A DNA stretch of 64,000 nucleotides from Escherichia coli (GCF_024298765.1 NZ_CP101210.1), one strand, 5' to 3'; shown: positions 11,537 through 16,100, counted from the stretch's first letter. Notes: a model not told the origin generated them from the letters alone. Numbers and translations: made by a program.

Positions 11537-13515
<1,979 letters not shown>

Positions 13516-13517
<2 letters not shown>

Positions 13518-14655
13518 GTCAGAGCCCCTCGATCTCAATCAGTTAGCGCAAAATATTAAACAGTGGGGGCTGGAACTGGGCTTTCAGCAGGTAGGTATTA
13601 TCGATACCGATCTCAGCGAGTCCGAGCCCAAACTGCAAGCATGGCTGGACAAACAATACCACGGCGAAATGGACTGGATGGCGCGTCACGGTATGCTGCG
13701 CGCTCGCCCCCATGAGTTATTGCCCGGTACGCTGCGCGTGATCAGCGTGCGGATGAATTACCTTCCTGCTAACGCCGCATTTGCCAGCACGCTGAAAAAC
13801 CCTAAGCTCGGCTATGTGAGCCGTTATGCGCTGGGCCGTGACTACCACAAACTTCTGCGCAACCGACTCAAAAAGCTGGGCGAGATGATTCAGCAACATT
13901 GTGTTTCGCTGAATTTTAGACCGTTTGTCGATTCTGCGCCTATTCTCGAGCGCCCGTTAGCTGAAAAAGCAGGACTTGGCTGGACAGGTAAGCACTCACT
14001 TATCCTCAATCGCGAGGCCGGTTCGTTCTTCTTTTTAGGCGAATTGCTGGTCGATATTCCTCTGCCCGTGGATCAACCAGTCGAGGAAGGATGCGGTAAA
14101 TGCGTGGCCTGTATGACGATTTGCCCGACCGGAGCCATCGTCGAGCCATATACCGTCGATGCTCGCCGCTGTATCTCTTATCTCACCATCGAACTGGAGG
14201 GGGCGATCCCGGAAGAGTTGCGACCGTTAATGGGAAATCGTATTTATGGTTGCGATGACTGCCAGCTTATCTGCCCGTGGAATCGCTATTCGCAACTCAC
14301 TACAGAAGACGATTTCAGCCCGCGTAAGCCGCTACACGCACCGGAACTCATTGAGTTATTCGCCTGGAGTGAAGAGAAGTTTTTAAAAGTCACGGAAGGT
14401 TCGGCGATTCGCCGTATAGGTCACCTGCGTTGGCTGCGTAATATTGCCGTAGCCTTAGGCAATGCGCCCTGGGATGAAACGATTCTGGCGGCGCTGGAGA
14501 GTCGTAAAGGTGAGCACCCACTTCTCGATGAGCACATAGCGTGGGCGATTGCGCAGCAAATCGAGAGGCGAAATGCGTGCATAGTCGAAGTGCAATTACC
14601 GAAAAAACAGCGTCTGGTTCGGGTGATTGAAAAAGGGTTACCGCGTGACGCCTGA
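13516..14655 (+). CDS. queG: Epoxyqueuosine reductase QueG (4Fe-4S, cobalamin)
   Basis: ORF track 415 aa trimmed to ATG at 13516 (MSEPLDLNQ); ferredoxin-like CxxCxxC motifs (CGKCVACMTICP, CDDCQLICP). Confidence 0.88.
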
Positions 14656-14924
14656 TTCATCCACAGCTTGTGAATAAAAATAAAAACGCATTGCAATTCA
14701 AGACGAATAAAATCGTCAAGTGATCGACTCGACAAAACGAAATCTTAATTTTTAACTTATCTATCAATAGGTTAAAAAAATACTATTCACCGTGCGAAGT
14801 TTCTTTGAAATTAAGATTACGGCCTGAGGCTGTGGATAACTCTGTTTACAAGAGTTTGTCAGAGACAATAAAAACCAGCAATAACGCATCGCGTCGCTGT
14901 GGATATTTTATTGAGAGAAGAATT

Positions 14925-15000
<76 letters not shown>

Positions 15001-15035
15001 TTGGGTGGTCTGTGCTTTACAGCACTTTCAAATTT

Positions 15036-15111
<76 letters not shown>

Positions 15112-15268
15112 TTAATCTTCGTCTTTCGAACCGCTACTGCCTTGGCTGCCTTCACTCACCTTAGTCACTTACTTTTGTAAGCTCCCAAGGATTCGTTCAG
15201 TTGCCGCCTTGTCGCAATTCGAAATACTGCGATTGGGTGGTCTGTGCTTTGCAGCACTTTTCAAATTT

Positions 15269-15344
<76 letters not shown>

Positions 15345-15402
15345 GTACTACTTAATTTTGCTTTCGTAATTTTCGCATTTCTGCGTCGTTACGGGAGGCG
15401 CA

Positions 15403-15455
15403 TTATACGAGAAATCTTTCCCTCTGCAACCCCCCTAAAAAATTTTTTTTGAGTT
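15403..15455 (-). promoter_or_regulatory. Candidate sigma70 promoter of the tRNA-Gly operon with upstream A/T-rich UP-like tract and GC-rich discriminator
   Basis: On minus strand: TTGCAG (15430..15425), 16-bp spacer, TATAAT (15408..15403), followed by GCGCCTCCC; A/T tract upstream. Confidence 0.55.
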
Positions 15456-15554
15456 TTTATCTCAAGTGCTGAAATTATCAGCAAGACGTTCAATTTAGCG
15501 TCAAAATCACGCCGCCGCAAGTGGATTCCGGCGCTTACGTGACCAGGAAAAATT

Positions 15555-16100
15555 TTACAGCTTGATAAAATGCTCGCGGTAGTAAGCCAGTTCTGCCACC
15601 GACTCACGGATATCATCCATCGCCTGATGCGTCCCCTGCTTGGTAAAACCATCAAGAATTTCCGGCTTCCAGCGGCGCGCCAGCTCTTTCAGGGTGCTGA
15701 CATCGAGATAACGGTAGTGGAAGTAGGCTTCCAGCTCCGGCATATATTTAAACAGGAAGCGACGATCCTGGCCGATGCTGTTACCGCAAATCGGCGATTT
15801 TCCCGCAGGCACCCACTGTTTTAAGAATTCGAGCGTTGCCAGTTCAGCTTCACGATCGCCCATCGTGCTCGCTTTCACGCGCTCCACCAGCCCGCTGGCG
15901 GTATGGGTGCGCACGTTCCAGTCATCCATCAGCGCCAGCTGTTCATCAGACTGGTGTACTGCAATGGTCGGCCCTTCTGCCAGAATATTCAGGTTGGCAT
16001 CGGTCACCAGCGTGGCAATCTCAATAATGCGATCGCGCTCGGGATCCAGACCGGTCATCTCAAGATCGATCCAAATCAGGTTGTTTTCATTGGCACTCAT
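15555..16100 (-). CDS. orn: Oligoribonuclease
   Basis: ORF track 229 aa trimmed to [23 protein letters not shown] (181 aa), DEDDh exonuclease motifs. Confidence 0.9.

Follow-up and report, generated by a model that had tools for sequence, protein, structure and literature searches.

The stretch of Escherichia coli DNA analysed here (64,000 nucleotides, referred to as the window) shares 99.9% identity with strain 104 and about 97% with K-12, and is found in 5425 of 5426 complete E. coli genomes. It carries queG, the gene for tRNA epoxyqueuosine(34) reductase (13516..14655, + strand, 379 aa, ATG 13516-13518), head-to-head with nnr, which encodes the bifunctional NAD(P)HX epimerase/dehydratase (11970..13517, - strand, 515 aa when read from its most upstream Met, M1, at ATG 13517-13515). 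Read directly, both start codons are drawn from a single palindromic CATG (C13515 A13516 T13517 G13518) that sits inside ...tccgtCATGtcagag... and, in wider context, ...ggtccgtCATGtcagagcccc..., with a coding overlap of 2 nt at 13516-13517. That this tetranucleotide supplies an ATG to queG on one strand and to nnr on the other was the core of the original prediction and is borne out by sequence and RefSeq annotation alike; the gene names, strands, coordinates and second in-frame ATG of nnr it gave (Met6, opening MKKN, at 13502-13500 on the - strand by sequence reading) also proved correct when compared with the sequence, the open reading frames and NCBIfam equivalogs. RefSeq/PGAP has the same 2-nt overlap in strain 104, NEB5-alpha, O157:H7, strain 536 and K-12 MG1655, where queG (b4166, yjeS) is placed at 4392928-4394067 (-) and nnr (b4167, yjeF) at 4394066-4395613 (+) of NC_000913.3. 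K-12 has an identical junction and departs from the window only by scattered substitutions elsewhere (e.g. queG Asn13 in the window versus Lys13). Among the 5425 complete E. coli genomes, 4829 share an identical 81-bp junction, and in two variant genomes that we inspected the differences were confined to queG codons 7-9.

Both products belong to their assigned families. Nnr scores 1025.8 bits against the equivalog NF007856 (cut-off 703), with profile positions 1-509 of 510 aligning to residues 1-509, and it has both domains of the family, the N-terminal YjeF_N epimerase (TIGR00197, residues 17-220) and the C-terminal carbohydrate-kinase-like dehydratase (TIGR00196, residues 231-499). Its closest solved homologue is T. 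maritima TM0922, and the PDB has no structure of the E. coli protein. QueG reaches 507.6 bits against TIGR00276 (cut-off 200, residues 14-348), and its homologues carry PF08331 plus PF13484. For queG, ATG 13516 is the sole workable start, since the next in-frame Met is codon 52 and a GTG at 13471, which we rejected, lies upstream of the mapped 5' end of the transcript (see below). On the nnr side, the mechanical open reading frame extends up to a TTG at 13538; this candidate was likewise dismissed, as it has no ribosome-binding site, sits just upstream of the nnr Shine-Dalgarno sequence (13530-13525) and is lost or closed off by a stop in several species.

Whether the coding sequences truly overlap depends on which Met starts Nnr, and the divergent overlap holds if M1 is used, a choice favoured by Shine-Dalgarno sequence, conservation and annotation. 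M1 is preceded, 7 nt before its ATG, by GAGGGG (13530-13525, - strand), which lies within queG codons 4-5 and overlies their Pro-Leu (CCC CTC on the + strand). The predicted duplex of this site with the 16S 3' end (-8.1 kcal/mol) is in the top 8% of 1961 ATGs of the window, while that of Met6 (-3.2 kcal/mol) is about the median of window ATGs and comes without a Shine-Dalgarno sequence. Both PGAP and the K-12 annotation support M1, as does the alignment of NF007856 from residue 1 onward. In the local 200-nt fold of the nnr leader, the Shine-Dalgarno stretch GGGGCU (13523-13528) pairs with AGCCCC (13571-13566) and has an unpaired probability of 0.29, a predicted pairing that could dampen nnr translation; AGCCCC is the complement of the queG Trp17-Gly18 codons.

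Comparison with the same locus from 80 other Enterobacteriaceae species sharpens the choice. In 75 of these, M1 is present as an ATG in frame, and in S. enterica subsp. arizonae, where M1 has become ATT, codon 2 is ATG instead. Codon 6 reads ATG, GTG or TTG in 55 species; a further 21, among them Cedecea, Buttiauxella, Dryocola, Citrobacter sedlakii and Atlantibacter, have a non-start codon there (CTG, GAG, CTA, ATA, CTT or similar). For eight of these 21, no start candidate other than M1 exists between the upstream stop and a conserved Ser-Ile-Pro-His block, and positions -25 to +12 relative to M1 hardly differ in the species where it is the sole possible start. Since a near-identical ribosome-binding site must serve species that have no other start, the one at M1 should function in E. 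coli too. Further afield, Met6 is missing and the CATG overlap is retained in Serratia marcescens (gene calls: - strand, 363-1502; + strand, from 1501) and in GCA_030370565.1 (64% identity in the N-terminal region of Nnr).

Four genomes point the other way. In Kosakonia arachidis, K. cowanii, K. oryziphila and one metagenome-assembled genome (L053, L055, L060 and L062), one extra base after codon 4, about 12 nt past the M1 ATG, puts M1 out of frame, such that it opens a 20-21 codon upstream reading frame overlapping the MKKN start, and an intact 503-aa Nnr can be started only at the MKKN ATG; three other Kosakonia species retain the E. coli frame. As the sole Nnr start in these four genomes, the MKKN site must be able to initiate without a good Shine-Dalgarno sequence, and it may act as a minor second start in E. 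coli. They thus lend some weight to a scenario in which Nnr is made from the MKKN Met (13502) only in E. coli as well, M1 is a by-product of the queG start and leader, and the two genes lie 13 bp apart. In line with this, ACGGACCAT downstream of M1 is conserved even where it is out of frame, the Kosakonia-type genomes included, so no Nnr coding is needed for its retention; folding predicts a more open region around Met6 than around M1 (unpaired 0.71 vs 0.52); and Nnr residues 1-16 lie outside the family-wide YjeF_N domain. Moreover, the ATG of queG determines two of the three bases of M1, leaving only the G (C13515 on the + strand) as an independent base, so that M1 conservation, like that of ACGGACCAT, is in part unrelated to Nnr. 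Yet Met6 has no Shine-Dalgarno sequence in front of it, and codon 6 varies as freely as an ordinary internal codon (ATG/GTG/TTG/CTG/GAG/CTA/ATA/CTT), being a non-start codon in the 21 species above, in Serratia and in the distant contig L086 (which, like L085, stems from an error-prone assembly with split genes and was used for junction sequence only), and the species where codon 6 cannot start must rely on an identical M1 ribosome-binding site. To our minds, exclusive use of the MKKN Met in E. coli is therefore improbable.

Use of both Mets, which would yield a longer and a shorter Nnr five residues (MTDHT) apart, appears doubtful, too. The two ATGs are in frame in E. coli, each is the only option in some relatives, and paired starts within a few codons of one another are reportedly frequent in E. 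coli start-site profiling (PMC4909307). Met6, though, has no Shine-Dalgarno sequence and lies 15 nt into the stretch that ribosomes occupy as they load at M1, and a functional difference between the two forms is questionable with the additional residues being outside the conserved fold. Indeed, because about the first 16 residues lie beyond the family-wide domain, the extra five are probably immaterial to the enzyme. We found no N-terminal or start-site-profiling entry for Nnr in the tetracycline ribosome-profiling supplements of PMC4909307, the Salmonella/E. coli start-site paper PMC5576327 or the text of a retapamulin profiling preprint, a weak absence given that the supplements were partial. 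Taken together, we consider it likely that nnr starts, at least mainly, at M1 (ATG 13517) in E. coli, based on comparison of sequences. Hence, the alternative start at MKKN raised in the original prediction does exist as an in-frame ATG, but Shine-Dalgarno sequence, conservation and annotation favour the upstream Met. For annotation, this means that the 515-aa Nnr model is supported for E. coli, while a few relatives (Kosakonia) need a shorter one.

The junction itself is a near-invariant block, gagatcgaggggctgtgacATGACGGACCAT, in which CATG is kept in 79 of the 80 other Enterobacteriaceae species as well as in Serratia marcescens and GCA_030370565.1. In a far more distant GC-rich gammaproteobacterium (L087, GCA_942492695.1; 49% identity) the two genes are divergent with about 195 nt between them, which places the collapse to an overlap within the Enterobacterales. 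This spacer contains CTGACAA/CTGAAAA heptamer repeats just upstream of nnr (L087 2430-2490). In Pectobacterium carotovorum (L089, BRCP01000019.1), a 1.3-kb insertion (211-1500) has parted queG from nnr; it carries a 293-aa open reading frame without a Pfam match, next to queG, nine codons of the former nnr start (ATGAGGAACCGTAAAAATGCACTGTATTAA) persist, and Nnr there begins with MHNASEPYRL.

With the genes joined in this way, both promoters are expected to lie inside the neighbouring coding sequence, as had been predicted for the case that nnr uses its upstream Met, and published K-12 5' ends (PMC7373196) together with conserved -10 hexamers support this. The condition attached to it was too narrow, however: embedded promoters do follow from M1, but they persist with the MKKN start, which leaves 13 bp (13503-13515) between the start codons. 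As this is far too little for two promoters, the conclusion is independent of the choice of Met. For queG, we find an extended -10 element, TGGTATACT (13476..13484, + strand), written in the Ser-Ile-Pro codons 12-14 of nnr and ending 7-8 nt before the 5' end, so that its sequence has the form of a sigma-70 extended -10 (TGnTATAAT-like, about 7 nt before the 5' end). It is present in 77 of the 80 species and, in 74, lies 31 nt before the queG ATG. Its equivalent in Serratia is TGGTAAACT and in Pectobacterium TGGTAAAAT, the latter at the same distance from queG even though nnr has been displaced. Retention of this distance despite the displacement shows that it is for the queG promoter, and not for the Nnr protein, that the 'Ser-Ile-Pro' stretch of nnr is maintained.

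The -10 of the nnr operon, TAAAAT (13918-13913, - strand), is found in queG codons Asn133-Phe134-Arg135 and ends 7-8 nt before the 5' end at about 13905. It occurs at the equivalent place in all 80 Enterobacteriaceae loci and in K-12, and is absent from the corresponding position in Serratia. Given that Serratia keeps the queG motif and not TAAAAT, the position of the nnr promoter is specific to Enterobacteriaceae. Neither promoter has a recognisable match to a -35 element, which explains why a consensus promoter scan of 13100-13950, requiring both hexamers, returned no site. From position and conservation, we infer that the two -10 motifs are working promoters.

Published transcript ends fit this picture. 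These 5' ends, taken from PMC7373196 Table S1, go back to the RNA-seq step analysis of Conway et al. rather than to dRNA-seq; they are given in U00096.2 coordinates, which we converted by means of the NC_000913.3 annotation (offset 1977) and the read CAUGACGGACCAUACAAUGAAG at 4392087-4392109, and the nnr ATG corresponds to 4392089. The K-12 junction and nnr promoter stretch are identical to those of the window. Listed as 'Divergent', the overlapping Conway transcripts span 4391701-4392114 with an overlap of 413 nt, the + strand promoter being at 4391701 and the terminator at 4408049 (PMC7373196 Table S1). The K-12 5' ends hence face each other at a distance of 413 nt, and in the window the complementary zone of the two transcripts runs from 13492 to 13905 on both strands. 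Accordingly, nnr has a 5' untranslated leader of about 388 nt (13518..13905, - strand), wholly antisense to queG codons 1-130, and queG one of about 24 nt (13492..13515, + strand; 5' end at about 13491/13492) that is antisense to nnr codons 1-9. With leaders of these lengths, the idea of leaderless mRNAs was discarded. The queG leader has no canonical Shine-Dalgarno sequence (duplex -4.2 kcal/mol), and GGTCCGTC immediately before its ATG is invariant. No Rfam family was detected in the nnr leader (search of 13300-15600).

The same zone is known from the literature as a source of double-stranded RNA in vivo. It includes the Lybecker dsRNA MS-212 (4391717-4392100, 'Divergent'; PMC7373196 Table S1) and the p19-captured dsRNA cluster S-361 (4391754-4392109, '5' overlap' type; PMC7373196 Table 2 and Table S1), the latter being one of the protein-coding clusters that rank in the top 20 by abundance during stationary phase (PMC7373196). 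The dsRNA read pairs span the nnr Shine-Dalgarno sequence and both start codons, and small dsRNA from the locus is RNase III-dependent (PMC7373196). Antisense transcription start sites from Thomason or Dornenburg are not listed for the locus in PMC7373196 Table S1, and the E. coli/Klebsiella TSS tables of PMC3415461 and the Cappable-seq tables of PMC4782308 gave no entry for the nnr or queG 5' ends, a weak absence in view of partial supplements.

These data also bear on the suspicion that the overlap is a matter of chance or an annotation artefact without biological reality. In its favour are the shortness of the CATG palindrome and the preference of gene callers for the longest reading frame. 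Against this, 80 Enterobacteriaceae species share the arrangement, the Shine-Dalgarno sequence and the two embedded -10 elements; the CATG overlap, nnr Shine-Dalgarno sequence and queG -10 (not the nnr -10 TAAAAT) are kept in Serratia; the spacer measures only 13 bp even if Met6 were used; and the published transcripts overlap by 413 nt. An artefact is thus extremely improbable and, by conservation plus transcript data, effectively refuted.

Across 81 aligned sequences, mean codon-choice identity in queG is 0.68 and only 15% of its codons reach 0.95. Each -10 hexamer lies inside an island of synonymous-site conservation in its host gene. Codons 131-135 of queG are invariant in codon choice, including the rare AGA for Arg135, the complement of which supplies part of TCTAAAAT, and codons 2-12, which run over the nnr Shine-Dalgarno sequence and upstream leader, display near-total synonymous-site conservation. 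The embedded signals provide an explanation for these frozen sites in queG and nnr, the invariant rare AGA at Arg135 being an example. A third frozen island is seen at 13978-14002 (queG codons ~155-162, Gly-Trp-Thr-Gly-Lys-His-Ser), with GTGAGTGCTTACCTGTCCAGCC as its - strand sequence. All 80 species have it unchanged; it uses the non-preferred codons ACA, AAG and TCA, is located some 75-95 nt before the 5' end of the nnr operon and has no match to a promoter or CRP-type site.

Our reading is that nnr and queG form a true head-to-head overlapping pair, in which the start codons would share CATG and, there being no intergenic DNA, every expression signal would be written into the coding sequence of the partner. 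Two face-to-face promoters, 413 bp apart, would drive transcripts that cross the shared start region. On the nnr mRNA, ribosomes would load at GAGGGG/AUG 13517, and on the queG mRNA at AUG 13516 behind a short leader poor in Shine-Dalgarno character, whose invariant GGUCCGUC may pair with 16S bases adjoining the anti-Shine-Dalgarno. The complementary 5' regions, including both ribosome-binding regions, could form the duplexes that, according to the literature, are cut by RNase III.

Duplex formation or polymerase collision may influence expression levels, a putative regulatory consequence of the overlap. More specifically, the complementary 5' regions may be envisaged as a conserved two-way antisense and collision switch, in which each mRNA would mask the other at its ribosome-binding site and start codon, firing of the most upstream promoter in the nnr-tsaE-amiB-mutL-miaA-hfq operon would inversely set queG expression, RNase III would clear the duplex and the invariant nucleotides flanking CATG would be kept for this function in addition to coding. 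We put this forward as a tentative proposal that is rather unlikely to hold. If true, it would tie queuosine tRNA modification (queG) inversely to promoter firing of the nnr operon. The excludon of Listeria offers a conceptual parallel to such divergent transcripts with overlapping 5' regions.

Set against other systems, queG/nnr resembles the dsRNA-forming divergent genes described before (Lybecker 2014; Conway 2014; Huang et al. 2020, PMC7373196) in having face-to-face promoters and complementary 5' regions. In contrast to most dsRNA loci in PMC7373196, its overlap is wholly coding, which follows from the lack of intergenic DNA. As for gene overlap, 663 overlapping adjacent pairs were counted in E. 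coli, with 586 co-oriented, 75 convergent and only two divergent (PMC4161906). Divergent overlapping pairs, the coding 5' ends of which overlap on opposite strands, hence are a very rare class in bacteria, and queG/nnr would belong to it with M1 as the nnr start; since PMC4161906 leaves its two divergent pairs unnamed, the likeness is one of class only. The overlap of queG and nnr could not be any smaller, and it has been kept in at least two families of Enterobacterales.

The promoter inside queG has a further side to it. Known as yjeF, nnr heads an operon of 14 genes that has eight promoters and four terminators (Conway et al., PMC4161252). The promoter at about 13905 is the most upstream one of this yjeF...rlmB operon, also described as the amiB-mutL-miaA-hfq-hflXKC 'superoperon'; earlier work centred on internal promoters, whereas the first promoter, inside queG, figures only in genome-wide tables. 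It follows from the arrangement that the first promoter of the mutL/miaA/hfq operon is set face to face with that of queG. In sum, the nnr/queG overlap is real, rare and already annotated, its overlapping transcripts are already in published genome-wide tables and nothing in it alters current understanding; rather, it presents a compact and strongly conserved case of promoters and a ribosome-binding site inside the coding sequence of an opposite-strand neighbour.

Features next to the pair deserve brief mention. The Rfam search of 13300-15600 retrieved only three tRNA-Gly genes and a sub-threshold YrlA match (40 bits, cut-off 69) that spans two of the tRNAs and probably reflects tRNA likeness. 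At its 3' end, queG has an 18-nt tail-to-tail overlap with yjeV, a RefSeq-annotated small open reading frame of 17 aa (MRFYFYSQAVDESGVTR; 14638-14691, - strand). At its own 3' end, nnr overlaps tsaE by 29 nt (11970-11998) and finishes in GCT CCC TGA; yjeF is among the CCC-TGA genes that were reported to shift frame (+1) at the stop codon (PMC2790909). The three tRNA-Gly(GCC) genes are identical to each other and occupy 14925-15344 on the - strand; the gap between the second and the third measures 157 nt in the window and strain 104 versus 35-36 nt in K-12, which indicates that the lineage of the window carries an extra ~120 nt there.
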